A stretch of DNA of 64,000 nt, taken from NCBI GenBank assembly GCA_964402035.1, contig CAYOAM010000001.1, forward strand, positions 371,558 to 435,557, read 5' to 3'. The translations under genes were made by a program, and so were the position numbers. Positions 17,252 through 63,405 of the stretch are shown here, piece after piece. The stretch's first letter is position 1. Each line of letters starts with the position of its first letter. Under the pieces are notes generated by a model that saw nothing but the letters and a program-made list of their open reading frames with translations, was not told the origin of the DNA and did no database searches. Source of the stretch: an uncultured Candidatus Saccharibacteria bacterium. GTDB taxonomy: Bacteria > Patescibacteriota > Minisyncoccia > Phycocordibacterales > UBA918.

Positions 17252-17259
17252 TTGTGACT

Positions 17260-18820: not shown

Positions 18821-18822
18821 AA

Positions 18823-19782: not shown

Positions 19783-19903
19783 ATTTTTTAATTATCTAAC
19801 AATTATTCTGTTTTGACAATACAGCACAATACGGTACTATTCGATGCGGATTGCCCTTGTTCATTGAAATAATTCACCAACCTCAACCTCTGGAGATTCT
19901 GAT

Positions 19904-23726: not shown

Positions 23727-23808
23727 CCATTCGTTGCGGAATGGCTATTTTTATAATGCTGTGATAGATTTTCATAAGTTTTTTGTTCATTGTCAAGGAG
23801 CACACACC

Positions 23809-41407: not shown

Positions 41408-42331
41408 TTATGGTGCTTCCGCCGTCGTCGAAGCTGTTGTTGAAGCGATAGGTAAGCTCTCGATTAGCGTCCCTATGCTCGAAGTTCCTTGCAGATAATG
41501 AGATTTTGTATAGGCAACCATACGTTCGGCCTCTTCAAACGATATCGGCTCAAGTGCCTTTGTATCAATCGCAACAAAGCGCAATGTATTGATCGGTGGT
41601 TGCATTGTGACATACGCATATTGCTCCGGTTTTGATGGATCAACCTCAAGATTTTCAACCAAACCAAAAACGGCGGAAGGTGTTGTCGGTATAACGACAG
41701 GATCCCGTAGGGAGACAGGAACTCCTTGCGGCACTCCGAGCCGTACAACACCACCACCCATCCCCGTACCGTGCACAAAAATATTGGCTCCATATATGTA
41801 CATAGGACTCTTGACGCCCGCGGTCGAAAACAGCACGACAAATGCACTACCCGGAAGCACGCGACCAACCGTACCGATAACTGCGCCATTGCCGTACACC
41901 AAAGCGCCTTCGACGATGCCGTCTGCCGACCCCTGATCAACAACCAATGAATCATACGGTGTTTCATAGGGTCGACGTACGATGTTTGCTACGATCCGTG
42001 ACGAGTTGGCACTACTCGCCATAGGAAACAATTTTTTTTCTTCCGCCAATATACGCACATAGAGTTCGTCAACATGTGCACGTACCAATCGCTCCCGCAG
42101 CTCCTCATTTTCTTGTTGCAGAGCAGCGCGCGAGCGAAAATAAAATGGAATCATCGAATCAGATGTCACGAGCCACACACGCACCACAGAAAGTGGAGCA
42201 ATCACATACGAAGTCAAAAAACTAAGGGGTCCCGAAAAAAAGAATACTCCAATGCACGCAACGGCGACAGCAAAAAACACGTTCCGTCGTGTGCGTGTTG
42301 TTCTAAAACGCTGCTGAGAATTCATTCTCAT
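41408..42331 (-). CDS. mreC: rod shape-determining protein MreC
   Basis: N-terminal TM + coiled-coil, then a Gly-rich beta-domain (VVDQGSADGIVEGALVYGNGAVIGTV). Confidence 0.75.
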   Translation of the reverse strand: MRMNSQQRFRTTRTRRNVFFAVAVACIGVFFFSGPLSFLTSYVIAPLSVVRVWLVTSDSMIPFYFRSRAALQQENEELRERLVRAHVDELYVRILAEEKKLFPMASSANSSRIVANIVRRPYETPYDSLVVDQGSADGIVEGALVYGNGAVIGTVGRVLPGSAFVVLFSTAGVKSPMYIYGANIFVHGTGMGGGVVRLGVPQGVPVSLRDPVVIPTTPSAVFGLVENLEVDPSKPEQYAYVTMQPPINTLRFVAIDTKALEPISFEEAERMVAYTKSHYLQGTSSIGTLIESLPIASTTASTTAEAP

Positions 42332-43373
42332 TATCTATAAGCACTTCAGCATACCGATCCATATGCTCAAGAATTATGCCAGTACCGCGGACGACCGATG
42401 TCAGTGGATCAGGGACCACAATCACCGATACCTGTAACACTTCTTCGAGGAGACCAGCAACTCCCGGTATGAGTGAACCACCACCCGCAAGATAGATACC
42501 GCGCTGCATTATATCAGAGAGGACTTCAGGAGGCGTACGCTCCAATACGTCTCGGACGGCCTCAACAATACTATCGATTGAATGTGATATTGCTTCACGG
42601 ATATCAGCGTCGGTGATCACCACTTCACGCGGTAATCCGGTCACCACATCACGACCACGGACCACTGTCTCACGAGCAGCATCAAGTCTCACGATCGATG
42701 CGAGCAATATCTTTACATCTTCGGCCGTCTTATCCCCGATTAATATTTTAAAGTGATCGCGAATATAACTGGTGACATCATCGTCCAGTGTATCGCCCGC
42801 CACGTGCAAATTTCGGGATACCACGATGCCATTGAGAGAAATAACCGCGATGTCGGTTGTACCACCCCCAATATCAATAATCATATTCCCGACAGGTAAA
42901 TGAACGGGGAGTTTCGCACCGATAGCCGCAGCCATCGGCTCCTCGACAAGAAATACTTCACGCGCGCCGGCATTGCGCGCCGCATCACGTGCCGCCCGCA
43001 TCTCAACGTTCGTAATCCCGGATGGAACACCAATAAGAACACGCGGACCAACGAGTGATCGTGAGTCAGCGCGCACCTTTGCTATTAAATATGCCAGCAA
43101 TTCTTCCGTCATCTCAAAATCTGAAATAACACCATCAACCAGCGGTCGCACTACTGCGATATGGGCTGGTGTGCGTCCCAGCATATTTTTTGCCGCCTTT
43201 CCAACAGCAACCAACTGATCCGTTTTTTTATTGATAGCCACTATGGTGGGCTCGTTGAGAATGATGCCCTTATTCTTTTGATATACGAGGGTGTTTGCCG
43301 TACCAAGATCAATCCCAATATCAGTTGAGATAGTACCTAAAATACGCTGCGCAATTCGCCTAAGCTGAATCAT
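42303..43373 (-). CDS. mreB: rod shape-determining actin homolog MreB
   Basis: Actin-fold motifs DIGIDLGTANT (phosphate 1), DIGGGTTD (phosphate 2), adenosine motif and GIYLAGGGSL. Confidence 0.9.
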   Translation of the reverse strand: MIQLRRIAQRILGTISTDIGIDLGTANTLVYQKNKGIILNEPTIVAINKKTDQLVAVGKAAKNMLGRTPAHIAVVRPLVDGVISDFEMTEELLAYLIAKVRADSRSLVGPRVLIGVPSGITNVEMRAARDAARNAGAREVFLVEEPMAAAIGAKLPVHLPVGNMIIDIGGGTTDIAVISLNGIVVSRNLHVAGDTLDDDVTSYIRDHFKILIGDKTAEDVKILLASIVRLDAARETVVRGRDVVTGLPREVVITDADIREAISHSIDSIVEAVRDVLERTPPEVLSDIMQRGIYLAGGGSLIPGVAGLLEEVLQVSVIVVPDPLTSVVRGTGIILEHMDRYAEVLIDNENEFSAAF

Positions 43374-46386: not shown

Positions 46387-47013
46387 TTAACGTTGTATGG
46401 GTAGCGCAAGTGAAAGATGCTCAAGCAACATCTTTACCGATGATCCTCGAGCGAGAAAATGCCGCGAAACCACCGCAAGATCCCTAAGCACCGCGGTATG
46501 CATGGACGCATGAAAGATTTCTTCAAGCGAAGAAATGAGTTCACCACACCACGCCATATCCTTTGCCTTATGCCGACGAGCTATTTCTTCAAATCGTTGT
46601 GCATATGACAGCGCCAAAAAATCGGATGCCACGCGATGCTCTATTCGTGTATGCAAAAGACGGACCACTTCAAAACGAGAACGTAACGTAGGGAGGATGC
46701 GATCATCGCGGTCGATCGAAAGCACAAATGCACTCGTCAGCGGAGGATCTTCAAAAAGTTTCAAAAGTGCGTTCTGCGCCTCATGTGTGACGTTGTCAGT
46801 ACGGATAACAAATACGCGATACGGCCTAACTACGGGTCGCTGATACGCGTACTGTTGCAGTGCCCGCACTTCCTCAATGCCAAATACCGTATAAACAAAC
46901 GCTTGGTAGTCAGGATTTCCTACCGTATCCTCGTCCACTATGCCATGCAGACTTGATGCCTTTTGTTGGGCAGCTTCCCAGGATCCTACAAGTAGATATG
47001 CATGATGCGCCAT
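46387..47013 (-). CDS. holB: DNA polymerase III delta-prime-like clamp-loader subunit (short)
   Basis: HAYLLVG start, sensor motif EAQNALLKLFEDPP (matching AANALLKTLEEPP), and SRC-like LRSRF. No Walker A, as expected for delta-prime. Confidence 0.55.
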   Translation of the reverse strand: MAHHAYLLVGSWEAAQQKASSLHGIVDEDTVGNPDYQAFVYTVFGIEEVRALQQYAYQRPVVRPYRVFVIRTDNVTHEAQNALLKLFEDPPLTSAFVLSIDRDDRILPTLRSRFEVVRLLHTRIEHRVASDFLALSYAQRFEEIARRHKAKDMAWCGELISSLEEIFHASMHTAVLRDLAVVSRHFLARGSSVKMLLEHLSLALPIQR

Positions 47014-47042: not shown

Positions 47043-48479
47043 TTACGCAGCTTGCTGCATACCAGCCATCACAACACGACGCACAAAATGTTCAACAAGC
47101 TCACGTTCAATCGGCAGTAGTTTGTATGCATCGCGCCACGCTCGCAGATTTTCACCGACATTATTAAACGTCTCAGGACGGATTTCTTTTGGAATAGTGC
47201 CATCATTATGGAGCAAGTCTTCAATCATGATATGTCGTACCGCAATCCAATCGGGATGCTGCGTGCCCGACTGCCCACCGATGCCGAGGAAACCTGTGGT
47301 ACCTAACCAACGCGTAAGCAAATCATTGAGACCTTTTGTCACCTCAGGGGCCAACAGCGGATCGATCGGTGTACTTTCTCTGAGCACTGCAGCATTTGCA
47401 TCACCCACATTCTTTTGCTTTTCAGTTAGAATGCTCCCTGCGGTCACTACACCAGAAGCAGGAGCACGGGGCACTGCTACTGGTGCAGACGGAACAGCAT
47501 CTGGTCTTGGAATTGATGGCGTCGTCACCGCTTCATTACTCTGTTTATTGATCACGATGTCGAGTGGTGCATCGACATGCTTACTGGTGCCATAATTGGT
47601 CGGCGCAGAAACATCGACTGGTGGAGGTGGAGGGACAGCAGCCTCCACAACTGGCTTAGTGAGAATTGAGACACGCGCTTTCAGAACGGCAGGCGGAGGG
47701 ACGGATGCTGCTGCCGATGGAGGAGTGGTTTCTGGCTTCGGCACATGACTATCTTTTCCCACAACCATACGTACTGATTCCGCTTGTTTTTTCAAACCCT
47801 CCAAACGCTGCTCTAAAGCAGGTATATCAATACCTGCAGTTATTGATGCAAGTGCCGCTCGAATCTCAAGCAACTCTTTTACATACTCGCGATACCCAGT
47901 CGTCGTATCATTGAGCCACTGAAATGCTCTTCCACGTCCAAATGCAATGAGCTCATCGTTTGTCTTTTCGAGCCGAGTGCGCAAGGCCTGTATTGCAGTA
48001 TCCACTCCTGTGCCCGCCGAAGTTTCCGACACTGCTACTACGGGTTCGGCTTGAGGTACTGGCACGGGCGCTGAAGTAACCGAAGCCGCAACGGGTGCTC
48101 CAAAATCAGGTCCTCGCTTTCGCGGAGCAGAAACGACCGCATCTACAGACGATCGTGCGGGGTCGACTGACTGGACTTCTATCTTTTTTGATACGACAAC
48201 AGGAGCAGGTGCGTCAGGTGTAGTAGGCGCAGATGCAGGTTGTGTGGCTGGAAGCGCTGCCACAGGAACAAGAAAGTGGGCAAGCGTTTTTAATTGTGCG
48301 TCAACATGAGCAGGAGTTCCACCTCCTCGCGCAAGCTGCATAAGTTCATCACGAAGTGTATTGTACGCCGCACGCTCAACATCATTAAAAGAAGCAGATG
48401 CTTTCTGAAGCGTCACAAACATACGCGCACGATCGGCAGCATTTTTTATATCAAAATTCTGAGGAGCATTTCCGTTCAT
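47043..48479 (-). CDS. hypothetical protein with a long Pro/Ala/Val-rich low-complexity linker
   Basis: 478 aa. A structured N-terminal ~110 aa, a >200-aa P/A/V-rich region (PPPPVDVSAPTNY...) and a C-terminal ~120-aa domain. No signal peptide seen. Confidence 0.5.
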   Translation of the reverse strand: MNGNAPQNFDIKNAADRARMFVTLQKASASFNDVERAAYNTLRDELMQLARGGGTPAHVDAQLKTLAHFLVPVAALPATQPASAPTTPDAPAPVVVSKKIEVQSVDPARSSVDAVVSAPRKRGPDFGAPVAASVTSAPVPVPQAEPVVAVSETSAGTGVDTAIQALRTRLEKTNDELIAFGRGRAFQWLNDTTTGYREYVKELLEIRAALASITAGIDIPALEQRLEGLKKQAESVRMVVGKDSHVPKPETTPPSAAASVPPPAVLKARVSILTKPVVEAAVPPPPPVDVSAPTNYGTSKHVDAPLDIVINKQSNEAVTTPSIPRPDAVPSAPVAVPRAPASGVVTAGSILTEKQKNVGDANAAVLRESTPIDPLLAPEVTKGLNDLLTRWLGTTGFLGIGGQSGTQHPDWIAVRHIMIEDLLHNDGTIPKEIRPETFNNVGENLRAWRDAYKLLPIERELVEHFVRRVVMAGMQQAA

Positions 48480-48523: not shown

Positions 48524-51262
48524 TCATCGTTGATAACGTGCTTGAATATCATTTTCAATAGCAGCTCGTTCTTTTCCGTACCGCACGTACGACGCGTTCA
48601 TGAGCGCCTCAATACGGTGAGCGTCACCAACAACAGGAGGAAATGTAGCGATGGAAAATGGTTTTGCCGGCACTCCCTCGACCAACATGCGTACGTATGC
48701 ATGTCTGTTTTCTATGTGCATCAAATCATGCGCTTTAAACTCTGGTGCAAATTGCTTTTCCAAAAATTCAGCGTCAGCAGAACCGACACGAAACGCACAG
48801 ATTGAACCCACGTTGCCAAAAACCGCATCACGAATTTTTTCATCTATTTGCGCTATAAACTGGTGTGCTATTGTGAGCCCAAGCTTGTATTTGCGCGCCT
48901 CAGAGAGAATCGATGCGATCGAGTTTGTGGTGATATTTTGAAACTCATCGATGTGGAGATAAAACGGTGCGTAGTCGCCCGATCGATCATCGACGCGTGA
49001 GAGCGCAGCCATGAGTATTTTTCCGACAATGATCATACCGATGAGGTTCGCATTGATTTCTCCCAAACGCCCCTTGGAGAGATTTACCAATAAAATTTTC
49101 TTACTGTCCATCACTTCACGCATATTAAATGCAGATGTTTGTTGACCAATGATCGGACGCATAAAATCGTTTGCGGTAAAGATATCAAACTTGGAGGTGA
49201 TATACGGCACCATATTTTCAAGCGCAGCATCTCCGCCGGCCTTGGTCGCAATTTCTTTCCAAAACTGGATGACGACGGGATTTGTCGCTTTGCTCAATTT
49301 GAGACGACGAAATTCGGCATCAGCCATGACGCGAGAGACATCGAGCAAAGTTGAACCACTTTGAGGATCATCAAGGACGAGCATGGTGGCGTTTCTAAAA
49401 TACTGTTCAAATATCGGACCCATTGATTCCGGTACCGCGCCATACAATTTTTGAAAAATTGAAAAAAGTTCGTTGACAACAAACGTTTTCTGCTCGGGAA
49501 ATTGCGGATCGTACTCGAGCATGTTGAGTCCGAGCACATGTTCCGTGTGCGCAGGATCAAAATAGATAATATCTTTTTCTCGCTCAGGGGGAACAGCAGC
49601 CAATACATCTGCAATATCGGTACCGTGTGGGTCAATAAAGCACACGCCTGCCCCATTTTTCATGTCGTCAATCACCATGTTTTTGAGCAATACCGATTTT
49701 CCCGTACCGGTCTGCCCCACGACATAAAAATGTCGCAGACGATCTTGTGGCGAAATATAAATATCAGTTTCTTTGCCACGATGTGAATTTTTTCCAATGC
49801 GCGTCCCTTGCTGCGGCATTACGATCGGTGCGGGAGCAGTTTTTGCTTGCACCTGTTTAAATTGTGGCGCAAGTTCATTGCTACCACGCGGTATATGGAT
49901 GAGTGTTGCAATTTCGCGCTCAGACAGTGGCAGTGCATACTCGTCTGCAAACTCACGAAATGAGAATCGTTGTAGTTCGCGCGTGCTCGTCCGACCCTTG
50001 AGCGTAGAAAAAGAAATACTATTTCCCATGGTGTGTTCAAACTGATTGAACGCCGCCTCTATTTCATGGACGAGCTGCTGCGCACGTGCTTCTTCCTTTG
50101 CTGAAATAGCGATACGTATCACCACCTCATGAATGGGTCGTTCAATCTTCTTTTGAAACAATTCGAGTTTCTCTTGCGGTATATCGTGCTTCTCTTTCTC
50201 CTCTTCTTTTTTCTTTGAGCTAAACAATTCATCCTGCACAAAGTGTAGGACGCTACCAAACATGGTCGACTGCTCTATCGCCTTGTCAACCGAGGTACCT
50301 TTCCGCACTTTTTTTATAATATCCTCGTACTTTTTTTGATAATCAAATGGACGAGGACGCACTAGTATCTGGAGCGATGCTCCGCCTCCCTCGCGTTCTA
50401 TTTTTGAAAACGCATTCAAGAGAACTCGCAATGGGTCATGGTCAAATGTATCGTACGTCCGTATCGGATAAATCGGAAACTTCTTGAGCTTCGCCACTGA
50501 GACGAGCGAAATTCCACCTTCAGAAAAAATATTGTAGTCATTTTTCTCTTCAGTCAAAACGGCATGTGGAAAAAGTGAGAGTAGCTGTTTTTCAAAAAGG
50601 TCAATGTACTGCGTTGGTACCGCCATATAAAAAACAATGTCGTCACTCTTGTCGGAGACCGCAATTTCGAGCGAATAATGAAAGTGCTGTTTGCGATCAC
50701 CCTTGCCAATGGTCTGGAGTCCCGCAAACAATTGCTCCATCGCCGATATGATAGCCGTCAATTCTTGCGCTTCTTCTTTTTCATCGGGAGATTCTGGGAG
50801 CGACACCGAAAACAATGTCATATGGAGAATATTCCACTCAGGTGCTCCGTCTTTGAAATTTGCAACATGCTTGCCGGTGCGGATATGCGCTACGAGTGCG
50901 CGATGCGCCTCATCGATAATAAATGAGTTTCGTGTTCGCTCAAGCACCGAAAGCGCATTGCGGATACCATAGTCTTCGGCAAGATGTATAACTTCCTCAA
51001 CCTTGTTGCGCGCCACGCTAACCTGCTCTGCAAGTCCGACCGTGAGTGCTGGCGAGAGTCTGCGATCCTCGGGCAAGACGGCGCTCGGTTCATGTTCACC
51101 ATATTCACGCAAAGCGGCCTTGCCCAAGGTCTCATAGTCTGCCGTATCGCCATTCCCTTGCCGCTCCATCATTGTACGTTCACGCTTTGCTATTTCTGCG
51201 CGCAAATACGCAATCTCTGCTTCAGGAGACCCAAAACTCTTCGGTTGTGGCCGCTCACTCAT
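48524..51262 (-). CDS. HerA/FtsK/VirB4-superfamily ATPase (DUF87-like), 912 aa with a large unknown N-terminal region
   Basis: Walker A GQTGTGKSVLLKN is followed by FIDPHGT (HerA/VirB4 DPHGE-like). Walker B YLHIDEFQNI. Arginine-finger segment EARKYKLGLTIAHQ (matching EGRKYGVGL). Confidence 0.7.
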   Translation of the reverse strand: MSERPQPKSFGSPEAEIAYLRAEIAKRERTMMERQGNGDTADYETLGKAALREYGEHEPSAVLPEDRRLSPALTVGLAEQVSVARNKVEEVIHLAEDYGIRNALSVLERTRNSFIIDEAHRALVAHIRTGKHVANFKDGAPEWNILHMTLFSVSLPESPDEKEEAQELTAIISAMEQLFAGLQTIGKGDRKQHFHYSLEIAVSDKSDDIVFYMAVPTQYIDLFEKQLLSLFPHAVLTEEKNDYNIFSEGGISLVSVAKLKKFPIYPIRTYDTFDHDPLRVLLNAFSKIEREGGGASLQILVRPRPFDYQKKYEDIIKKVRKGTSVDKAIEQSTMFGSVLHFVQDELFSSKKKEEEKEKHDIPQEKLELFQKKIERPIHEVVIRIAISAKEEARAQQLVHEIEAAFNQFEHTMGNSISFSTLKGRTSTRELQRFSFREFADEYALPLSEREIATLIHIPRGSNELAPQFKQVQAKTAPAPIVMPQQGTRIGKNSHRGKETDIYISPQDRLRHFYVVGQTGTGKSVLLKNMVIDDMKNGAGVCFIDPHGTDIADVLAAVPPEREKDIIYFDPAHTEHVLGLNMLEYDPQFPEQKTFVVNELFSIFQKLYGAVPESMGPIFEQYFRNATMLVLDDPQSGSTLLDVSRVMADAEFRRLKLSKATNPVVIQFWKEIATKAGGDAALENMVPYITSKFDIFTANDFMRPIIGQQTSAFNMREVMDSKKILLVNLSKGRLGEINANLIGMIIVGKILMAALSRVDDRSGDYAPFYLHIDEFQNITTNSIASILSEARKYKLGLTIAHQFIAQIDEKIRDAVFGNVGSICAFRVGSADAEFLEKQFAPEFKAHDLMHIENRHAYVRMLVEGVPAKPFSIATFPPVVGDAHRIEALMNASYVRYGKERAAIENDIQARYQR

Positions 51263-51357: not shown

Positions 51358-52368
51358 TTATTGCTTAGAAACAATACTACGTTTATAAGTATCCAAATGC
51401 TCAAGCGCAATGCCAGTACCTTTTGCGACACAGTAGAGCGCATTGTCCGCAAGAATTGCTTTTACACCGGTACGACGACGTACGAGCTCGGGAAAATTGC
51501 GGAGTTGCGATGTACCTCCCGTCATAATGATGCCTTTATCAATAATATCTGACGCAAGTTCTGGTGGTGTTTCTTGAAATACATCCTTGATTGCTCGCAC
51601 CATGTCACGCAACTCGCGCGAGATAGCACGCACGATTTCATTTGTCTTGATTTCAACCGTACGTGGAAGTCCCGTCAGCAAATCGCGACCTTTGACTTGC
51701 ATCACCAACTCTTCTTCAAGTGGCAACGCTGATCCAATATTTATTTTTACTTCCTCCGCAGTCTTGTCTCCGATTGCAAGGTTGGCACTTTTTTTAACAT
51801 AGTCGATGATGGCGTGATCAATATGATTTCCTGCACACTTCACCGAGTTTGCCGCGACAATACCGCCAAGTGAAATAACCGCAACGTCGATCGTTCCGCC
51901 TCCGACATCGACGATCATGTGCCCACGCGGCTCATATATAGGTATGCCAGCTCCAATTGCGGCGAGGATCGGCTCTTTGACCACATAGGCATTGCGAGCT
52001 CCGACATTCATCGCCGCCTCGACCACAGCACGCTTTTCAGTCGAAGAAACTCCAGCAGGTACCGACACCATGACATCCGGCTTAAATATCGAATACGGTC
52101 CAAGAGCTTTGCGGAGAAAATACCGCAACATCGCCTCAGTCACGCGATAGTCTGCGATGACGCCATCTTTCATCGGACGATACGCACGAATATTTTCTGG
52201 CGTCCGACCCACCATCTCTTTTGCCTCCGCGCCCACAGCAAGGATTTTTTTATCATCAGATATCGCCACAACCGAGGGTTCATTGAGTACAATCCCCCGC
52301 CCAGGGATAAAGACGAGCACATTAGTTGTACCCAAATCAATACCAACTTTTGGAGTGAAATAAGACAT
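51358..52368 (-). CDS. second actin-like MreB/Mbl paralog
   Basis: Actin-fold motifs VGIDLGTTN, DVGGGTIDVAV and IIMTGGTSQL. 336 aa. Shares only low identity with the mreB at 42303..43373. Confidence 0.8.
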   Translation of the reverse strand: MSYFTPKVGIDLGTTNVLVFIPGRGIVLNEPSVVAISDDKKILAVGAEAKEMVGRTPENIRAYRPMKDGVIADYRVTEAMLRYFLRKALGPYSIFKPDVMVSVPAGVSSTEKRAVVEAAMNVGARNAYVVKEPILAAIGAGIPIYEPRGHMIVDVGGGTIDVAVISLGGIVAANSVKCAGNHIDHAIIDYVKKSANLAIGDKTAEEVKINIGSALPLEEELVMQVKGRDLLTGLPRTVEIKTNEIVRAISRELRDMVRAIKDVFQETPPELASDIIDKGIIMTGGTSQLRNFPELVRRRTGVKAILADNALYCVAKGTGIALEHLDTYKRSIVSKQ

Positions 52369-52501
52369 ATCTCTAAAACGTGCTTAGTATAGCAGTTTTT
52401 TAGCTTATATATTGAAGATACTTGCTTTATTCATGTTATATGGTATAATTGACACCTGATATTGTTCCCAGTTCTTCTCACTATCGACAGGGAGTATCCC
52501 A

Positions 52502-52984
52502 ATGAACAATTCTTCAATGCAAGCAAACCCCTGCATTCTTGTTGCTTTACGTGGAGGTATCAAGGATGCGTTTGCCGAAATCATAAGGCAAATCGAGCTA
52601 TTAGAAATGGAATTCGATGCACTGCGTTTGAGACCGCTCGACTCCGAAGAAGAGAGACGATTCCTACTTTCTTTTCACAAAGAAATAGGCGTCTCTCTAA
52701 AAAGTATATTGCGTCAATCCGCCACGATGGATGTTGTCAATACAATGACATCAATCGACACTGTTCTCTGTCTTTACGCATTCGCCACAAGCAACCGATG
52801 CATTGAAAAGGTGAAACCAAGAACGATTGTTGTTCTGACAGAATTTAGGGTGACGTTTCAAGCTCTTGACCGGGCACGAAAATGGCTTCAAAGGGAAGTT
52901 GAATACATTACCAACCCGCCACCATTGTGGTGGCGCATACTTGCGGGTCTAACGAACAGCCGAGCACCGTTGCGCGGTCGGTAA
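52502..52984 (+). CDS. hypothetical protein
   Basis: 160-aa ORF in the divergent region between mreB2 and murA. No motif. May be spurious. Confidence 0.3.
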   Translation: MNNSSMQANPCILVALRGGIKDAFAEIIRQIELLEMEFDALRLRPLDSEEERRFLLSFHKEIGVSLKSILRQSATMDVVNTMTSIDTVLCLYAFATSNRCIEKVKPRTIVVLTEFRVTFQALDRARKWLQREVEYITNPPPLWWRILAGLTNSRAPLRGR

Positions 52985-53047
52985 CAACATTCGCCCACGA
53001 AGAGTCGCTTGCGACCTTCGTGGGCGATTTTTCTATTTATCTTTCCA

Positions 53048-53095
53048 TACCAAGGGTAGCCCTTGGTAGATATTTTTTCCAAGGGTTACCCTTGG
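53048..53095. promoter_or_regulatory. two tandem 17-21-bp perfect palindromes CCAAGGG-N3-CCCTTGG upstream of murA (candidate operator pair)
   Basis: taccaagggTAGcccttggta (53048-53068) and ccaagggTTAcccttgg (53079-53095). Centres are ~30 bp apart. They lie 60-110 bp upstream of the murA start. Confidence 0.4.
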
Positions 53096-53155
53096 CAGTA
53101 TCTGTCCTTACCTTGAGATCTTCCCTCAAAGTCTATATTGACGTATCATTTCGCT

Positions 53156-54493
53156 ATGACCGATCCTAAAAGCCACAAGATCAATGTCAGTCTCTCTATT
53201 GAAGGCGGACACCCACTCTCGGGGACTATTGAAACAAACACCAGCAAAAATGGTGCTGTTGTGCTCTTGGCCGCTTCCCTACTCAACAAAAAAACCACAA
53301 CGCTGCACAAAATGCCACAGATCGAAGAGGTGTTTCGCCTCATTGAAGTGTTGCGCAGCATCGGAGTTGTCGTCACCTGGAGCGGTTCAACACTCACTCT
53401 AACTCCACCTCCAAAATTTTTACTTGACGATGTCGATGTACCCGCAGCACAGCTCACCCGCAGCATTTTGATGTTTATTGGTCCCCTACTGCATCATTTT
53501 TCTTCTTTTTCACTTCCTCAGTCAGGCGGATGTAGACTCGGTGCACGCACAGTACGTCCGCACTTTTTTGCACTCGAACCATTGGGAGTTGCAGTCACAA
53601 CCGAAGAAGAGCGCTTCAATATTTCACACGAGAAGCTTACACAGCCTGCAGAAATCATCCTCTATGAGTCTGGCGACACGGTCACAAACAACCTCACCAT
53701 GGCGCTCGCACTAATGGAAGGCACGACGACAATCAAGTACGCCTCAGCCAACTACCAAGTGCAGGAGCTCTGTTTCTTCCTCGAAAAATGTGGGGTCAAG
53801 ATTGAAGGAATTGGATCTACCAACCTCACCATCACCGGTGTACGTGAAATCGCACAAGATATTGAGTACACACTTTCAGAAGATCCGATAGACAGCATGT
53901 TTTTTATCGCTACAGCGATCGTGACGAAGTCTGCGATCACTATCACTCGCGCGCCGATCGAATTTCTGGAACTCGAACTTTTGAAATTGGAAAAGATGGG
54001 TTTTGTGTACACCAAAAGCGCTCCGTACTTCTCACACAATGGTCGCACCAAACTTGTCGACATTCATACACAACCATCCAAGCTCATTGCACCAGAAGAA
54101 AAAATTTATGGCCGCCCCTATCCGGGACTCAATATCGACAACCTCCCATTTTTTGCTGTCATTGCGACACAAGCCGACGGACAGACACTGATCCATGACT
54201 GGGCATACGATGGCCGCGCCATCCACTACACCGAACTTTCAAAACTCGGAGCCGAAGTACTGCTGGCTGACCCACATCGCATCTTTATCTCAGGACCATC
54301 GACCCTAACACCTGCCGATCTCACCTGTCCTCCAGCACTACGGCCTGCAGCGATACTCTTAATCGCCATGTTGGGTGCGGAAGGCACGTCCAAACTCCGC
54401 AATATCTATAGTATCAAGCGTGGCTACGAAAACTTGGCTGAACGACTTGCTTCGATTGGTGCGCATATCACCTCCTTTGAAGAAGATCTCTAA
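53156..54493 (+). CDS. murA: UDP-N-acetylglucosamine 1-carboxyvinyltransferase
   Basis: EPSP-synthase-fold repeats. The conserved N-terminal (L/V)SG-type segment (GGHPLSGTIETNTSKNGAVVLLAASLL) and the active-site Cys region. The start is trimmed to MTDPKSHKINVS. Confidence 0.9.
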   Translation: MTDPKSHKINVSLSIEGGHPLSGTIETNTSKNGAVVLLAASLLNKKTTTLHKMPQIEEVFRLIEVLRSIGVVVTWSGSTLTLTPPPKFLLDDVDVPAAQLTRSILMFIGPLLHHFSSFSLPQSGGCRLGARTVRPHFFALEPLGVAVTTEEERFNISHEKLTQPAEIILYESGDTVTNNLTMALALMEGTTTIKYASANYQVQELCFFLEKCGVKIEGIGSTNLTITGVREIAQDIEYTLSEDPIDSMFFIATAIVTKSAITITRAPIEFLELELLKLEKMGFVYTKSAPYFSHNGRTKLVDIHTQPSKLIAPEEKIYGRPYPGLNIDNLPFFAVIATQADGQTLIHDWAYDGRAIHYTELSKLGAEVLLADPHRIFISGPSTLTPADLTCPPALRPAAILLIAMLGAEGTSKLRNIYSIKRGYENLAERLASIGAHITSFEEDL

Positions 54494-54546
54494 GATAGAT
54501 CGGAGCTGTAGGAAAATCGCGGACAACGTTTTTTGCAATAGCAACC

Positions 54547-54607
54547 AATGCCCGCAAGCCCTTTTAAAAAAACGTGGCCAGCGGTTTATGTTGGGCATTT
54601 TTTTTTG
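54547..54607 (+). terminator. terminator-like structure after murA
   Basis: The long-range stem aatgccc ... gggcatt is followed by T9. Confidence 0.4.
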
Positions 54608-54640
54608 GTTTTCTGATTCTCACAAGGTACACTACTCCTG

Positions 54641-56527
54641 ATGTTTGTTATTGAAATTACTCCCATTGGTCGTGGTGTTTTGGCTGAATCACTCTCCTAT
54701 TTTTCGCATACCGCCTACCCACTGGGCGCACTACTCTCCATTGCCGTTCGAAAAAGTACTCAACTCGGTGTCGTGACCAAAATCACCGATGCTTTTTCAA
54801 TGAAAACTGCGCTGCGTGCAGCAACATTTTCACTGCGCAAGCTCGACGAACAGGTACCAAAGCATCATCTTTCACCGCATATCATAGAGACAGCAACCAA
54901 GGCTGCTGCTTTTTACGCTGCATCCATGGGATCCGTTCTTTTTTCGTTGATCCCAAAAGAGATACGCGAAGGAACCATTCCTTTTTTAGAAGGGACTGAA
55001 CACAATGATATACTCCCCAATACTGAAAAACCCTACGTATTTATTGCCCCCGCAAAAGAACGGTACCGTGAATATCGGAGAATGGTGCGAGAATCGTTTG
55101 CAAATAAAAAATCAGTGCATTGTGTACTGCCAACGCTCGAGTATGTGAGCGAGGTACAAGACCTACTAAGTACCGGCATCGAGGCATACACCGTACTACT
55201 ACACAGTGGCCAGCCCAGGTCTTCCTTCCAAAAAATGTACGAGCGGCTACGAAATGAAGGACATCCACTGCTCATCATCACAACTCCAGGACATGCTTTT
55301 ATTGATAGAAAAGATATTGGCACGGTTATCGTGGAGCACGCACGGTCAAACGGGTATCGTGCAAAAATACGGCCATATATCGACTACCGCTTTGCGCTTG
55401 AGGTGCACGCGACCGCACACCGCCGCACACTGATATATGCAGATACCGTGGCGCGCTCCGAAGAAATATATCGATTGCACAACGGGAGTGCTACGTCATT
55501 TGGAGAACTGCCAAAAAGACACAGTCTCCCAGCAACACTGCAGGTCATCACCATGGAAAGCGAAGCAGACCCAGCAACTTTTTTGCTTATATCACCAGAG
55601 CTCAAAAAGCACTTGGAGCTCGCGGTAAAAAACAAAGAGCGGTTCTTTCTGTATTCAGCACGACGTGGACTCGCGCCACTTGTCGCATGTGCTGATTGTA
55701 AACATATTTTTAGAGACCCACATTCAGGATCACCGCTCGCGCTCATACGCGCAGCGCATCATGGTGAACAAAAAAGATTCTTGGTGAGTTCTGTGTCCGG
55801 ATATCGCATGTTGGCACCTGACACCTGCCCCACCTGCGGCGGATGGCGTCTGCGCGAACGAGGCATTGGTATTCAGCATGTGTACGACGAACTTTCAAAG
55901 ATCATCGATCCTGCATCTATATTTTTGTTTGACCATATCACCGCATCGACACACAAAAAAGCGCAGAAAATCCGAGACTCATTTTATGAAAAAAAAGGAT
56001 CGATTCTTTTGGGAACCGCCCTCGCACTGCCATACATTGCGCACCCCGTACACCACAGCGCTATCATGAGTATGGACTCTCTTCGTGCCCTCCCCTCGTG
56101 GCGACAACAGGAAGAAGTATTTGCACTCATGATGTCACTGCGCGAAAAGACGATGGGCAGCGTCTTTGTGCAAACCCGGAGTGAGGATGATATTTTTGAA
56201 TTGGTCCGCCGTGGTGAATTGCAGGAGTTCTATGACCAAGAACTCAAATTGCGCGAACAATTTCGTTATCCGCCCTACGATATTTTTTTGCATCTTACGT
56301 GGTATGAAAGTGAGAACACTACAACCACTCGGGATATGCTTGGGCAACAGTTTGCACCATACGCCATTTCCCTTTATAGTGCACCCAATGTGAGCGCTGG
56401 AAAACAGCTATGGTACGGACTTATACGCATCCCGCGTTCAGACTGGCCTTTAGAAGAACTTTCCCAACAGTTACGAACGCTCCCGCCCACAATTCGTATT
56501 ATGATTAACCCTGATCGTATTATCTGA
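54641..56527 (+). CDS. priA: primosomal protein N' (PriA)-like protein with degenerate ATPase motifs
   Basis: The PriA-like N-terminal domain, the conserved-order helicase-core segments (VLLHSGQ..., LLIITTPGHAF) and the C-terminal Zn-finger cysteines CADCKHIF...CPTCGGW are all present. The Walker A position reads IAPAKERY and the DExH position reads VEHAR. Confidence 0.55.
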   Translation: MFVIEITPIGRGVLAESLSYFSHTAYPLGALLSIAVRKSTQLGVVTKITDAFSMKTALRAATFSLRKLDEQVPKHHLSPHIIETATKAAAFYAASMGSVLFSLIPKEIREGTIPFLEGTEHNDILPNTEKPYVFIAPAKERYREYRRMVRESFANKKSVHCVLPTLEYVSEVQDLLSTGIEAYTVLLHSGQPRSSFQKMYERLRNEGHPLLIITTPGHAFIDRKDIGTVIVEHARSNGYRAKIRPYIDYRFALEVHATAHRRTLIYADTVARSEEIYRLHNGSATSFGELPKRHSLPATLQVITMESEADPATFLLISPELKKHLELAVKNKERFFLYSARRGLAPLVACADCKHIFRDPHSGSPLALIRAAHHGEQKRFLVSSVSGYRMLAPDTCPTCGGWRLRERGIGIQHVYDELSKIIDPASIFLFDHITASTHKKAQKIRDSFYEKKGSILLGTALALPYIAHPVHHSAIMSMDSLRALPSWRQQEEVFALMMSLREKTMGSVFVQTRSEDDIFELVRRGELQEFYDQELKLREQFRYPPYDIFLHLTWYESENTTTTRDMLGQQFAPYAISLYSAPNVSAGKQLWYGLIRIPRSDWPLEELSQQLRTLPPTIRIMINPDRII

Positions 56528-56535
56528 CGAACACT

Positions 56536-57087
56536 ATGGCGAAACTCGTACCACAAAAACATCCTGCACTGCATCAAATAGCGGAGGAAGTACCGCTTGA
56601 AGATATTGGCTCCCCGAAGCTTAACAAAGTGCTCGCAGACATGCGGACAGCACTCCATGCATACAATGTGGAAGGTTTTTCTGGTGTCGCCATTGCAGCG
56701 CCGCAAATCGGCATTCCCTTTCGTATTTTTCTTATCGAGGATATGAATCCTGTCCGAGATGATGGAGTGGTTATCCCAGCACTTGTTGCCATAAATCCGA
56801 CCATCGTGAAAATGTCGAAACAAAAGAAAGTTGTTGGTGAAGGTTGTCTTTCGGTACCGGAAGCGTACGGTGCAGTCTCGCGATCGGTCCGCACGACGAT
56901 CCGTGCATACGATGAGAACGGCAACCTGTATGAGCGCGGTGGCAGCGGTCTTTTGGCACAAATATTCCAACATGAAGTCGATCACCTCGACGGCATTCTC
57001 TTTGTTGATAAGGCAACAAAGGTGTGGGACAAAATAGAGGAACAGGAAAAACGTCTGAATAAATCTAAAAAGGAAACACCTGAATGA
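56536..57087 (+). CDS. def: peptide deformylase
   Basis: Motifs GVAIAAPQIG, EGCLS and QHEVDHLDG. Confidence 0.9.
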   Translation: MAKLVPQKHPALHQIAEEVPLEDIGSPKLNKVLADMRTALHAYNVEGFSGVAIAAPQIGIPFRIFLIEDMNPVRDDGVVIPALVAINPTIVKMSKQKKVVGEGCLSVPEAYGAVSRSVRTTIRAYDENGNLYERGGSGLLAQIFQHEVDHLDGILFVDKATKVWDKIEEQEKRLNKSKKETPE

Positions 57088-57962
57088 AAAAAATACGCAT
57101 TGCTTTTTTTGGGACACCAGAATTTTCAGTCGATATTCTACGCGAATTGGAGAAGGCGCATATTGTGCCGTCTCTTGTCGTAACAGCTCCTGATGCGCCA
57201 CGCGGACGCCACCTCGTACTCACGCCCCCCGAAGCAAAAGTCTGGGCTCAAGAACACGATATCCCAGTACTCCAACCGACCACCCTACGGCTCACCTCCA
57301 AAGAGGACAACGATCGCGACGCACTCTATAACAGCGAATGGGATCTATTTATTGTCGCCTCATATGGAAAAATCTTGCCACAGACACTGCTCGATATCCC
57401 ACGTCACGGTACCTTAAACGTTCATCCTTCTCTACTCCCACTGTATCGTGGCGCAAGTCCGATACGATCAGCAATACTTGAAGACAACAAAGCTGCCGTC
57501 GGCGTCACCATCATGCAACTGACCGAAGGGCTCGATGAAGGACCGATCATCGCGCAAGGCCGCGTCGAGACAGAAGAGTGGCCTCCACACGCACTTGTGT
57601 TAGAAAAGCTCCTCGCACACGAAGGTGGCGAGCTATTGGCTGAGGCAATCCCTCTCTGGGTTGCAGGGGGTATCACACCAGAAGCACAGGACAACGCTCA
57701 AGCAACATTTTCATCGAAAATCACTAAAGAGATGGGCGAAATAGATCTTGCTGGTGACCCGTATCAAAATTTCTTAAAAATCCGCGCACTTGAAGGTTGG
57801 CCTGGTACCTACTTTTTTGTAGAGAAAACAGGAAAGAAAATGCGTGTAAAAATTACCGATGCATCATATGCAGATGGCACACTTCATATTGAAAAAGTTA
57901 TTCCCGAAGGAAAAAATGAAATGTCCTACGAACAATTTCAAAAATCACAAGCGACTACCTAA
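57084..57962 (+). CDS. fmt: methionyl-tRNA formyltransferase
   Basis: N-terminal formyltransferase domain (FFGTPEFSV, HPSLLPLYRG) plus a C-terminal domain. 4-nt overlap with def. Confidence 0.9.
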   Translation: MKKIRIAFFGTPEFSVDILRELEKAHIVPSLVVTAPDAPRGRHLVLTPPEAKVWAQEHDIPVLQPTTLRLTSKEDNDRDALYNSEWDLFIVASYGKILPQTLLDIPRHGTLNVHPSLLPLYRGASPIRSAILEDNKAAVGVTIMQLTEGLDEGPIIAQGRVETEEWPPHALVLEKLLAHEGGELLAEAIPLWVAGGITPEAQDNAQATFSSKITKEMGEIDLAGDPYQNFLKIRALEGWPGTYFFVEKTGKKMRVKITDASYADGTLHIEKVIPEGKNEMSYEQFQKSQATT

Positions 57963-59737: not shown

Positions 59738-60065
59738 TCCGATGTAGCTCAATGGTAGAGCAGCTCGCTGTGAACAAAAAAGTTCCAATCGCAGCTTCCT
59801 AGAGAAACCTAGGTTGAAAAACAAGGTGAATTGCTGGAAACCCCTTTGGGGCAATCAGCAGCCAAGCCCGATCGTATCGCAGATACGATTTAGGGAAGGT
59901 TCAGAGACTATCCCTTCGGGGAGTAGCAGGATAACGTTAATCTTTGCGAAGCGCCTTGCACCGTCATTTTGATCAAACAAAATCGGTGATGATATAGTCC
60001 ATCCCTTTTAGCAATAAGAGGAGCAATGTAACGAGTTGGTTGTAGGTTCGAATCCTACCATCGGA
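59738..60065 (+). tRNA. tRNA-Asn(GUU) interrupted by a group I intron between anticodon positions 35 and 36 (exons 59738-59771 and 60028-60065)
   Basis: Exon 1 TCCGATG-TA-GCTC-AATGGTA-GAGC-A-GCTCG-CUGU. Exon 2 UAA-CGAGT-TGGTT-GTAGG-TTCGAAT-CCTAC-CATCGGA-G. The acceptor stem pairs perfectly and the discriminator is G73. After splicing the loop reads CU-GUU-AA. Confidence 0.7.
59772..60027 (+). ncRNA. group I self-splicing intron (256 nt) in the tRNA anticodon loop
   Basis: P1: exon GCUGU (59767-59771) pairs with IGS GCAGC (59791-59795), placing U:G at the splice site. Core elements are P aattgctggaaa (59829-59840), Q aatcagcagcc (59853-59863), R gttcagagacta (59899-59910) and S gatgatatagtcc (59987-59999). 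P2 is cctag/ctagg, P8 has a UUCG loop, and the intron ends in G60027. Confidence 0.75.
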
Positions 60066-60069
60066 GCAA

Positions 60070-60925: not shown

Positions 60926-61660
60926 TCACGACCTTGGCACCATCTCCTGTGGAATCATCTTAATGGATAAATGAACTCGTTCAGTATTATAGTATCGCAG
61001 ATATTTTTTCAACGCACAGTTGATTGCACGCACATCAGTGGGTACATGGTCTAAACACTCCTCTTGGAGAGTTCTGTTGAAGCGCTCAATGTGTGCGTTG
61101 TCGTTTGGTTTCCCGATACGCGAATAGCGATGGTCATGCTTGATTCTGGAGACAAACCATGACGAGAACTCAGGTCCATGATCAGACTGCAGCATCGAGA
61201 ATCGAAAGGTGCAGTGTCGTGCTGCTTCGCGCACGAAACGCACACTGGTTCTGCCGTTCATGCGCGCGTATGCTTTCGCATACGCAACACGAGAGTTCAC
61301 GTCGATGAGTGAGAACACATACAGTCGCTTTTTCTGGTCAATCATGCGGTGGATGGTATCGATTTCCACTAAGGAACCTGGCCGTGCTGCGATCGGTCGA
61401 TCGATATGCGGGTGGTACCGTTTCCACGGACTTCGTTTCTTGAGGAGCCCGTGTCGTTCGATGGTACGGTGTACCGTATTTCGAGACACCATCACCCCCT
61501 CACGCATGAGCATCAGATGTATTGCTTCCGTACATCGCCCCGTACTGAGCCGCAGGCGTACAATCCGTTGTTCGACTGCATCGGGAATACTGCGTGGATG
61601 ATGACGAGGACGAGAGCTTCTGGTGGGTATGGTATGATACCCAATCCTCTTCGCTCTTCA
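60926..61660 (-). mobile_element. IS3-family transposase OrfB (DDE integrase core) fragment without a detectable orfA (truncated IS remnant)
   Basis: The 195-aa ORF carries the rve-domain pattern (LMREGV..., VEIDTIHRM, DHGPEF, IERFNRTLQEE). The same frame extends upstream to ~61660 without a stop (...IPDAVEQRIVRLRLSTGRCTEAIHL). No HTH orfA or slippery heptamer was found. The next plus-strand gene starts at 61903. Confidence 0.6.
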
Positions 61661-61902: not shown

Positions 61903-63405
61903 ATGAAGATTGAAGATGTTCTCGCCCGCCTCGATCATGAGCACAAAAACGGTGCCTCTGAAGAGGATCTCGCAAATACGGCTAAATCGATCATTCGTCC
62001 ACCTGCCGTCGCGCACCTTAATCCACACTCGACGAGGAAAATGGTGGGAACAAGGGAGTCGTTTGACAAGTCGAGCGTCACCATTTCGTTAGAAACCGAA
62101 CATGGGATGGCGACAGACGAGATTCGTCGTACTCTCGCGGAGACACTTGCAACGTTCGGCACACTGGAAGCACCTCCTGACATGTTTACGGCAGAAATTA
62201 GCTATCGCTGGGAATCGATTGCGGCATTTCTACGAGAAACGGAAATTTCGCCAAAGGTCAGCCATATTACGATTAGTCCGCATTACGCCACTATCGACAA
62301 GACGAAGCTGCGTATGCACAAACCCCGTGGCAACTCCGTTGATCTTAAACTGGACTACTGGCCGAACTACAAAGGTCCGCATATCGAGATCGCCACGAAG
62401 CACAGTGTGCAATTGCACGAGGAGATCGTACGGGCAATTCGTCCGTGGGTTACCTACTCATTCAGTAGGCCTGCATGGCTTCCACGTCTGAGGCGCAGAG
62501 ATACCACACAGATGCGATTCAATTTCGGCGGAGGCGGCGGTATTTCTTTTGCAGAATTCGAGCCCACGATCAATATTCCCGCGCCTGCAAACTTTCTGCT
62601 CGGCGTCGGAAGACTCTTTGGCACGAAACTACCGCTGCCAACGGAGTTCAGGAAGGCAGTTTTCAACAGCGACCGCCTTCTTGAGTACCTGCAGACAGCA
62701 AGCAGCCTCTTTAGCAAGCATCAAGATGCTGCGACGAACAAATACGAACCGCCGAGCGAGGAAGAGACAGCACGCATGTTCCATCAAGAGCTGCTCGTCA
62801 TCGATTCCTTCGGAAAGGACAAGTCGGGCAACGAGTGCTGGCCTTCCTCAATTGCAGCAGGCCGCGCTGCAGTCAGGATGATCCAGGAACATTTCGGGTG
62901 GAATCACCAGCACATGCAAGCACTCATGCTTGTAACTCCATATCCATGGAATCTTGGTGTGTGGATCACGCACGTATCGGATACATACGGCGTTGAACTG
63001 GAACCCGACTACCCTTCGTGCATTCCCGAGAAAGATACCCAGATCATTCGCTTGTGGTGTCTCCTTCGGGCATTTCGGAAGAGCTTTGCAGCTGATCCGA
63101 AAAATTCATATAGGCGCTACCACGAAGAATATCTTCACCCGACATACTTGTGGTCGAGCTACGTAGAGAAGTGTGACCTGAACGAAGTCGTCCACACGCC
63201 AAAGCCGATGCATGCAGATCTGCAGAAAGTCAGCTTCGGCCATGCGGACATACGCCGCGACAACAAAGACTTCTTCAAGGTGGAATGCTCAACTTTCGAA
63301 CCAAATACCTTGAGCTTTGCGCTTTCGCTCAACACGGGGTCCGATACACCGTTCTTTCCTTTCTACAACAGTGTTCTCAAGCAACTGGGATACACACTCG
63401 GCTGA
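61903..63405 (+). CDS. hypothetical protein (500 aa), no recognisable domain
   Basis: A long uninterrupted ORF with coding-like composition and a GGGGG loop (FNFGGGGGISF). It directly abuts the IS3 remnant. Confidence 0.5.
   Translation: MKIEDVLARLDHEHKNGASEEDLANTAKSIIRPPAVAHLNPHSTRKMVGTRESFDKSSVTISLETEHGMATDEIRRTLAETLATFGTLEAPPDMFTAEISYRWESIAAFLRETEISPKVSHITISPHYATIDKTKLRMHKPRGNSVDLKLDYWPNYKGPHIEIATKHSVQLHEEIVRAIRPWVTYSFSRPAWLPRLRRRDTTQMRFNFGGGGGISFAEFEPTINIPAPANFLLGVGRLFGTKLPLPTEFRKAVFNSDRLLEYLQTASSLFSKHQDAATNKYEPPSEEETARMFHQELLVIDSFGKDKSGNECWPSSIAAGRAAVRMIQEHFGWNHQHMQALMLVTPYPWNLGVWITHVSDTYGVELEPDYPSCIPEKDTQIIRLWCLLRAFRKSFAADPKNSYRRYHEEYLHPTYLWSSYVEKCDLNEVVHTPKPMHADLQKVSFGHADIRRDNKDFFKVECSTFEPNTLSFALSLNTGSDTPFFPFYNSVLKQLGYTLG

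Follow-up and report, generated by a model that had tools for sequence, protein, structure and literature searches.

Can the primosomal protein PriA still serve replication restart after losing its ATP-binding site, and is such a loss real? The question arises from a stretch of 64,000 nucleotides (the window: positions 371,558 to 435,557 of contig CAYOAM010000001.1, assembly GCA_964402035.1) from an uncultured bacterium of the candidate phyla radiation (CPR), in which a priA-like gene codes for a protein of 628 amino acids (aa). The original prediction, made from the DNA letters, located this open reading frame (ORF) exactly (Table 1) and stated that its product keeps the domain order of PriA while the Walker A and DExH motifs are replaced. 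The analysis reported here favors, with a probability of about 0.7, the reading that the protein is an ATPase-dead PriA orthologue, working as a fork-recognizing static platform that would reload the replicative helicase DnaB without unwinding.

The protein is a PriA homologue along its full length. It matches the NCBIfam model TIGR00595 with 138.8 bits (E = 2.1e-40), short of the equivalog cutoff of 230.35, and nine PRK05580 PriA models with E-values from 1e-16 to 2e-40, the scores against the PRK05580 and PRK14873 models being all far under their own cutoffs. Moreover, a sequence search of the PDB returned PriA alone (K. pneumoniae and E. coli; E = 4e-14), with an identity of 16-17% to the solved PriA structures. 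The hhalign alignment of 140 family members to five canonical PriAs from four phyla (E. coli, Bacteroides, Listeria, S. aureus, and Acaryochloris) has a probability of 100% and an E-value of 1.4e-70 over 603 columns, extending from the 3' DNA-binding domain (3'BD) to the C-terminus. The AlphaFold2 model of the 628-aa protein reaches a mean pLDDT (predicted local distance difference test) of 94.8 and a pTM (predicted template modeling score) of 0.93, and its nine best Foldseek matches in the PDB are all PriA: the fork-bound E. coli protein (8FAK_H) ranks first (E = 1.7e-37, TM 0.79) and the winged-helix-deletion PriA 6DCR second (E = 2.5e-32), followed by 4NL4, 6DGD, and 4NL8, with the next family, DbpA/Mfd, at about 1e-10, roughly 27 orders of magnitude behind. 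In the model and in these matches, the two RecA-like lobes of superfamily II (SF2) are present in the overall fold specific to PriA. The predicted succession of 3'BD, helicase-shaped core, cysteine-rich insert, and C-terminal domain (CTD) is thus borne out by both the hhalign and the Foldseek results.

Comparison with canonical PriA (TIGR00595, COG1198; structures 4NL4, 6DGD, and 8FAK) defines what is shared and what is missing. The domain order, the fold, the insertion of the cysteine-rich region (CRR) in lobe 2, motifs IV, IVa, and V, the outer CxxC pairs, and the YPP motif are shared, and the def and fmt neighbors are those found in Bacillota; in contrast, the window protein lacks the Q-motif, motifs I, II, and VI, and the winged-helix (WH) domain, and has four of the canonical cysteines instead of eight. 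At the N-terminus, the 3'BD is below the Pfam threshold in the window protein itself (PF17764, E = 0.0039, 17.4 bits against a threshold of 22.7), although it is counted as present because homologues pass, hhalign aligns it, and the structure matches PriA; the claim of a 3'BD therefore stands on these three grounds and not on the Pfam match. The family keeps 6 of the 11 canonical-invariant residues of this domain, with Y20 (E. coli Y18) conserved in 100% and G29 in 99% of its members. Downstream, E. coli residues ~110-220, which comprise the Q-motif and the WH domain, have no counterpart, and a 26-residue linker takes their place. An equivalent arrangement, with no WH domain between the 3'BD and lobe 1, exists in 6DCR, which is engineered and ATPase-competent, whereas in the CPR family the absence is natural. 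The WH domain is probably not universal in PriA: the NCBIfam model NF004069, only 612 positions long, aligns across residues 14-564 of the window protein, and, judging from sequence models, short natural canonical PriAs without a WH domain appear to exist.

The ATP site is where the protein departs most from canonical PriA. The register rests on three independent alignments (MAFFT with E. coli PriA and 120 or 151 relatives, MAFFT with the five canonical PriAs, and hhalign), and in all of them IAPAKERY (I135-Y142) stands where GxTGSGKT is expected, as originally predicted: it pairs with G224-T231 (GVTGSGKT) of E. coli, so that R141 corresponds to the Walker lysine K230. At motif II, D320-H323 (DEEH) aligns with E232-R235 (EHAR), leaving an acidic residue at the Asp position and a His at that of the catalytic Glu; the replacement proposed for this motif is therefore correct, while its reading as VEHAR has to be corrected by one position, the V being the preceding hydrophobic residue. 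At motif VI, QVAGRAGRAGK faces SL-----REKT, and the five-residue gap is required by hhalign too. Accordingly, the family keeps 1 of the 10 canonical-invariant residues in motif I, 3 of 7 in motif II, and 2 of 10 in motif VI. The erosion is thus wider than first described and extends to motif VI, to the Q-motif/WH segment, and to half of the zinc region, which are likewise gone.

An intact P-loop elsewhere in the protein was not found in any register of the profile alignments of motifs I and II. With hhalign, nothing in the CPR profile pairs with the canonical GVTGSGKT segment; similarly, the TIGR00595 match begins at profile position 14 and protein residue 145, and when these positions are carried over via E. 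coli PriA, the Walker A part of this profile would be unmatched. In the AlphaFold2 model, a strand (132-135) leads directly into a helix that starts at residue 138 (pLDDT 98), so that a two-residue loop occupies the place of the expected eight-residue P-loop. The patterns [AG]x4GK[ST], GK[ST], GxGK, DExH/DEAD, and QxxGRxxR are absent from the whole protein, and the six frames of 54301-56700 contain no Walker A, which excludes a shifted register or a hidden frameshift. On the strength of these empty scans, a concealed or displaced P-loop was rejected; the few [AG]x4GK[ST] matches in relatives fall at unrelated positions (107, 162, 200, 275, 385, and 591) and are due to chance. On this evidence, the window PriA is predicted to lack ATPase activity.

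The same residues could instead be taken as parts of a cryptic NTPase with an unconventional nucleotide site, made, for example, of R141 and the Walker B acidic residue, or located at the second, weak site of PriA. The essentially invariant state of R141 and of the acidic residue at the D320 position would fit such a site, as would the second Glu (E-x-E) in most of the wider family, the few DEEH members, and the second nucleotide site that the literature considers possible for the E. coli protein (PMC5778457). This option is nevertheless highly improbable: there is no glycine-rich loop, only the two-residue loop of a confident model, the Q-motif and the arginine fingers of motif VI are deleted, and the K→R change alone abolishes the ATPase of E. 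coli PriA. Furthermore, the acidic residues that precede R141 would repel phosphate. Specifically, an acidic residue directly precedes the invariant Arg in 134 of the 151 representatives of the wider family, and at least one of the four preceding positions is acidic in 143 of them. It may be speculated from this pattern that carboxylates of the protein itself, paired with the Arg, occupy the former phosphate site.

Is the loss then an artefact, or the mark of a decaying gene? The start codon is correct because homologues share the N-terminus MFVIEV..., the frame is intact with no Walker A in the others, and the identical protein occurs in independent samples (ENA ERZ3430527, on a 453-kb contig, and Logan SRR7369911). 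Between close species pairs, the ratio of nonsynonymous to synonymous substitution rates (dN/dS) of priA is 0.014-0.064, similar to that of murA (0.009-0.051) and def (0.016-0.058), with fmt at 0.058-0.184; the priA-like gene is functional and under strong purifying selection. Sequencing or assembly error and pseudogenization were rejected on the basis of the independent assemblies and of these dN/dS values (~0.01-0.06), and with the same features present in hundreds of full-length orthologues, and nothing found in favor of an artefact or of gene decay, the chance that either explains the motif loss is negligible.

The change extends across the lineage. Among the 489 family proteins examined (493 alignment rows), none has a Walker A at motif I, and the Walker-lysine column holds Arg in 491 of the 493 rows. 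The 120 closest proteins (43-56% identity) invariably combine Arg with the motif VI deletion and have no Walker A, while in the 151 representatives of 50%-identity clusters, which reach down to ~27-28% identity, Arg is found in 149 and the deletion in all. Stepping outward from P0235, a member that keeps DEEH, gave 119 rows, and from P0195, the member closest to E. coli, 103 rows, every one with Arg and with the deletion. The boundary with canonical PriA inside the CPR was sought by such outward steps, the first of them from the window protein, and was not reached: all 340 further proteins proved to be of the pseudohelicase type and are labeled Parcubacteria/Paceibacteria. The original prediction had proposed to check whether orthologues share the substitutions, and they do: all 489 relatives are without a P-loop and nearly always have the Arg. 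It follows that the change is old and shared by the whole lineage, and that neither recent inactivation nor a sequencing error accounts for it.

The search of the whole library yielded 769 representative clusters (50% identity) at E <= 1e-30, and a genome scan with a 25-sequence alignment recovered 80 species-level genomes, all of them metagenome-assembled genomes (MAGs) of Patescibacteria, the nearest being only 55% identical. The taxon labels are all Patescibacteria of the Parcubacteria/Paceibacteria/Minisyncoccia type, including Kaiserbacteria, Nomurabacteria, Zambryskibacteria, and Pacebacteria. The label "uncultured Candidatus Saccharibacteria" on some third-party annotation MAGs is regarded as generic because these MAGs match the window as closely as the Kaiserbacteria entries do and share its synteny.

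Within the family, erosion is graded. Clustering of the 151 representatives resolves two main clades. The major one (126 of 151) keeps eight Cys and mostly reads E-[RKH]-E-[SN] at motif II; a few of its members read DEEH, DDEH, or EEEH there, yet are without motifs I and VI. The clade of the window, with 15 representatives and all of the 120 closest proteins, reads EH[AS]R, has lost the second Glu, carries a new conserved Arg at the H323 position (R235; 115 of 120), and is probably also without the inner zinc site, a loss that recurs in other small clusters. From this distribution of motifs, a history may be proposed in which ATP binding was lost early (motifs I and VI and the Q-motif) and constraint on motif II and on the second zinc site was relaxed afterwards.

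The CRR reflects the same gradation. Canonical PriA binds two zinc ions through eight Cys (PMC5778457). The zinc-binding insert (CADCKH...CPTCGG) noted originally is present, but it has only four of these eight cysteines, the inner pairs being replaced by D359, S362, S383, and S386. The outer Cys are 100% conserved in all sets of relatives, and all eight are kept in 122 of the 151 diverse representatives; conversely, of the 120 closest relatives, 118 have no Cys at the C448 column and all 120 none at the C466 column. Because the inner pairs were lost together while the outer four are fully conserved, the sequences suggest that the window PriA has abandoned one of the two zinc sites.

Outside the ATP motifs and in lobe 2, conservation is higher: the family keeps 4 of 5 canonical-invariant residues in motif IV, 2 of 3 in IVa, 3 of 6 in V, and 5 of 9 in Va, together with 11 of 14 in the CRR and 6 of 10 in the CTD; just ahead of the CTD, R538, P544, and P545 (E. 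coli R625, P631, and P632) are kept in 100% of the family. The DNA-contact motifs of lobe 1 are kept less well (Ia 1 of 6, Ib/Ic 5 of 13), and retention of the DNA-binding motifs can therefore be stated only with this qualification. New near-invariant positions specific to the family have also appeared, such as R141, the loop RPY.D.R, and, in the 3'BD, the segment ...LRAATFSLRKLP, where the near-invariant motif is K55-x3-R59-AATFSLRKLP. In the loop IRPYIDYRF, P245 is invariant, D248 and R250 are conserved in at least 90%, and the equivalent of E. coli R338 in 94% of the family.

The position of the gene bears on whether it is the priA orthologue or a stray copy. Across the 80 related loci compared, def lies downstream of priA in 71 of the 72 with enough sequence, fmt downstream in 65 of 65, and murA upstream in 67 of 71, the commonest order being mreB(-) murA priA def fmt hpf(-) (54 of 80); the conserved priA-def-fmt context claimed at first is thereby confirmed. 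Canonical priA has comparable neighbors (priA-fmt in Listeria; priA ... def in S. aureus). Since the murA-priA-def-fmt order is conserved and canonical priA also sits beside fmt or def, these data support that the CPR gene is the priA orthologue in its ancestral position and not a stray paralogue. The opposite possibility, that a canonical ATP-hydrolyzing PriA is encoded elsewhere and that the gene in the window is a degenerate accessory duplicate, draws on the facts that the inspection covered 64 kb, the contig being at least 453 kb long, and that the patterns of the genome scan are family-specific and blind to a canonical copy. It is quite improbable: the gene occupies the ancestral priA position beside def-fmt across 80 genomes, several sources name it primosomal protein N', and the 489 relatives, which reach down to 27% identity, include no canonical PriA. 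In addition, CPR genomes are small, and duplicates are seldom kept.

Among replisome partners looked for within the 64-kb window, neither dnaB, dnaG, ssb, a helicase loader, nor a second PriA was found, and only a holB-like gene is present. This gene (46387-47013, - strand) codes for a DNA polymerase III delta'-like protein of 208 aa that matches positions 80-157 of the 161 of the DNA_pol3_delta2 profile, and is another shortened replication protein in this genome. The window is otherwise of housekeeping character: it includes an mraZ-mraW-ftsI-murE cluster, mreB/mreC with PBP2, rseP, and frr, besides several tRNA synthetases and phosphoketolase with acetate kinase. Scanning of the priA locus for promoters and terminators gave a promoter signal no higher than background.

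Precedents exist for a PriA without a motor. E. coli PriA K230R is devoid of ATPase, helicase, and translocase activity, yet is nearly wild type and supports PriA-PriB restart. The original prediction had noted that this mutant supports restart. Helicase activity is required solely by the PriA-PriC route and for certain special substrates (PMC5778457). The likeness to this mutant (priA300) lies in the Arg at the Walker lysine and in the ability of an ATPase-dead PriA to assemble a primosome (PMC5778457); the difference is that priA300 carries one substitution in an intact helicase and needs PriB and DnaT, whereas in the CPR protein the whole site is lost and neither PriB nor DnaT is known or seen in the 64-kb window. 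A closer parallel is D. radiodurans PriA, which has Arg at the Walker lysine and no ATPase or helicase activity, and binds single-stranded DNA, forks, and DnaB directly (PMC4504706; Lopper, Boone & Morrow 2015); a 2018 review listed Deinococcus as the sole exception to the conserved helicase activity of PriA. The pseudohelicase of Deinococcus-Thermus shares with that of the CPR the off-consensus motifs I and II and the lineage-wide Walker K→R change, and it serves as the functional model for the CPR protein.

Conversely, the Parcubacteria of the CPR are an unrelated phylum, and their PriA has gone beyond K→R, since the whole glycine-rich loop is missing, the five-residue deletion in motif VI is fixed, neither the Q-motif nor the WH domain is present, the length is small (628 aa in the window), and in the subclade of the window one zinc site is probably missing as well. 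With every labeled relative belonging to the Patescibacteria, the CPR loss is likely independent of that in Deinococcus-Thermus. Deinococcus/Thermus PriA was also sought in plasmid and phage collections, with no match, and five metagenome matches to the published D. radiodurans priA primer were dismissed as chance (38-aa ORFs, GC 0.57). A literature search on PriA, the primosome, or replication restart in CPR, Patescibacteria, or Parcubacteria found nothing relevant, the sole joint match (PMC10849945) concerning phylum UBP6. A lineage-wide K→R PriA pseudohelicase is thus already known from Deinococcus-Thermus, while that of the CPR is apparently undescribed.

According to the model proposed here, CPR PriA would bind stalled or repaired, or abandoned, forks in a structure-specific manner by means of its 3'BD, lobe 2, CRR, and CTD, and would form a static platform to which the replicative helicase DnaB is recruited, either directly or via SSB or a loader. 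DnaB would then be reloaded with no translocation or unwinding step by PriA, in parallel with the PriA-PriB pathway of E. coli K230R and with the role proposed for D. radiodurans PriA. The suggestion of a pseudo-enzyme scaffold is backed by the strong purifying selection and the conserved synteny, and that of a different restart logic is no surprise, the option being known from Deinococcus and K230R. Some points weigh against this model. The 3'-end pocket of the 3'BD is altered (E. coli F16→L, D17→S, and G37→R), and with motifs Ia and Ib/Ic eroded, DNA binding by the core may differ from that of canonical PriA. Moreover, absent ATPase activity, fork binding, and partner proteins are predictions, as is the biochemistry of all family members, and a second canonical PriA or another restart factor may lie beyond the 64-kb window.

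Part of these points would equally suit a scaffold with a new function, in which the sole PriA-like gene of the genome reuses the PriA fold outside replication restart, possibly in recombination/competence, in initiation, or in a link to the partners of the def-fmt operon. Erosion beyond the ATP site, in the lobe-1 DNA contacts and the 3'BD pocket, the missing WH domain, and the new near-invariant motifs (K55-x3-R59-AATFSLRKLP; R235 in the clade of the window) are in line with it, whereas the full PriA-specific architecture is maintained under strong purifying selection, and the Deinococcus precedent retains fork and DnaB binding; a change of function is therefore unlikely. The neighborhood is uninformative on this point since canonical priA is also found in the def/fmt context.

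The CPR family constitutes a second, much larger lineage of predicted PriA pseudohelicases, spanning a major class of the CPR, in which the ATP site has been erased, beyond mere mutation, in a protein still under strong purifying selection. It offers a natural experiment on which functions of PriA, such as fork recognition and primosome nucleation, operate without the motor, and suggests that restart in ultra-small reduced genomes may rest on a scaffold-only PriA. For a specialist in replication restart the surprise is modest, as the concept has precedent; for structure-function work, the family supplies graded natural variants (eight versus four Cys, E-x-E versus EHAR at motif II). A broader and rather doubtful extension is that Parcubacteria/Paceibacteria have restarted replication with a motorless PriA throughout their diversification, that an Arg-carboxylate "nucleotide mimic" locks the core, and that the K→R change of Deinococcus-Thermus is convergent. 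If true, the Arg at the Walker-lysine position would have a structural role in any PriA that gives up ATP, and a direct, loader-independent hand-off to DnaB would be a widespread, possibly ancestral, mode of restart.

The database annotation of the family is affected as well. NCBI calls many members (P0004, P0051, P0059, P0074, and others) "hypothetical protein" because they score under the equivalog cutoff, while JGI and some NCBI records use "primosomal protein N' (superfamily II helicase)". For the CPR PriA family the helicase label is probably wrong, and Gene Ontology (GO) terms for helicase or ATPase activity are unfit for transfer to it.

Table 1. Coordinates of the priA-like gene, of the parts of its product, and of the adjacent genes in the window.
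Feature	Positions	Strand	Evidence or remark
murA	53138..54493	+	Pfam PF00275, E = 4.2e-43; upstream neighbor, 147-nt gap to priA
priA-like gene	54641..56527	+	ORF from ATG 54641 to TGA 56527, 628 aa; ATPase-motif-less PriA orthologue (pseudohelicase)
3' DNA-binding domain (aa 1-105)	54641..54955	+	PF17764 sub-threshold; aligned by hhalign; precomputed for many homologues
Linker (aa 106-131) in place of the winged-helix and Q-motif segment	54956..55033	+	Alignments; pLDDT 73-85, lowest block of the model
RecA-like lobe 1, degenerate (aa 132-312)	55034..55576	+	Foldseek and hhalign
Motif I / Walker A remnant VFIAPAKERY (aa 133-142)	55037..55066	+	R141 at the Walker-lysine position
Motif II / Walker B remnant VIVEHARS (aa 229-236)	55325..55348	+	phmmer against 4NL4, MAFFT, hhalign
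Conserved loop IRPYIDYRF (aa 243-251)	55367..55393	+	At the canonical Y335-R338 position
RecA-like lobe 2 (aa 313-545)	55577..56275	+	Motifs IV (RRG 341-343), IVa (GIG 408-410), and V (GT 458-459) kept; near-invariant family columns
Cysteine-rich region (aa 347-402)	55679..55846	+	Outer CxxC pairs C350, C353, C396, and C399 only
Motif VI remnant LMMSLREKT (aa 496-504)	56126..56152	+	Five-residue deletion relative to QVAGRAGRAGK
C-terminal domain (aa 546-628)	56276..56524	+	Follows the conserved YPPY motif; hhalign alignment reaches the C-terminal end
def (peptide deformylase)	56536..57087	+	Pfam PF01327, E = 1.4e-39; 8 nt past priA
fmt (methionyl-tRNA formyltransferase)	57084..57962	+	Pfam PF00551/PF02911; 4-nt overlap with def

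The window has further features of note. Two MreB-like genes, 42303-43373 (-) and 51358-52368 (-), are about 8 kb apart; one belongs to an mreB-mreC-PBP2 cluster, and the other is located divergently upstream of murA-priA and is kept beside murA in most related loci. The gap between mreB and murA (52369-53137, 770 bp) contains a 160-aa ORF (52502-52984) with no Pfam match that is unconserved in the 80 related loci, and two strong terminator-like hairpins on the + strand (52999-53068; no Rfam match) that suggest an unannotated transcript. On the other side of the MreB-like gene, 48524-51262 (-) codes for a 912-aa FtsK/HerA/TraG-like ATPase with weak HerA/DUF87, AAA, and TraG-D_C matches; the ORF that follows (47043-48479, 478 aa) matches no Pfam family.

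Downstream of the priA-def-fmt-hpf cluster, a tRNA-Asn(GUU) gene (59738-60067, +), missed by default tRNA scanning, carries in its anticodon loop a group I intron of 257 nt (Rfam RF00028, 88.1 bits). The corresponding tRNA-Asn is uninterrupted in the related loci L002 and L009, while ARAGORN places an intron at tRNA position 35-37 in six others (L046, L052, L057, L062, L064, and L073), of ~250-280 nt in five and 169 nt in L046; in L005 (11403-11642), Rfam reports a group I intron at the equivalent position, where no tRNA is called. Since both intact and intron-bearing genes occur among the relatives, the intron is variably present. Group I introns in CPR tRNAs have been mentioned earlier (PMC8172020). 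Just downstream of the intron-bearing tRNA-Asn, an rve-family integrase/transposase ORF (60926-61513, -; 195 aa) is adjoined by ORFs with no Pfam match, including one of 500 aa (61903-63405).

Lastly, two regions further upstream in the window may be mentioned. The segment 19851-25940 (+) contains two radical-SAM genes, one with a B12-binding domain, and a gene for a GH3-family adenylating enzyme, together with two ORFs with no Pfam match (22542-23726 and 23683-24510); possibly, these genes form a small cassette for biosynthesis or modification, which is unusual in a reduced CPR genome. The stretch 16000-20000, which may be horizontally acquired, has a GC content of 0.37-0.38 against ~0.46-0.48 elsewhere and carries genes for a fatty-acid desaturase, a Rieske 2Fe-2S protein, a DUF4440/SnoaL-like protein, and a PAP2 protein.

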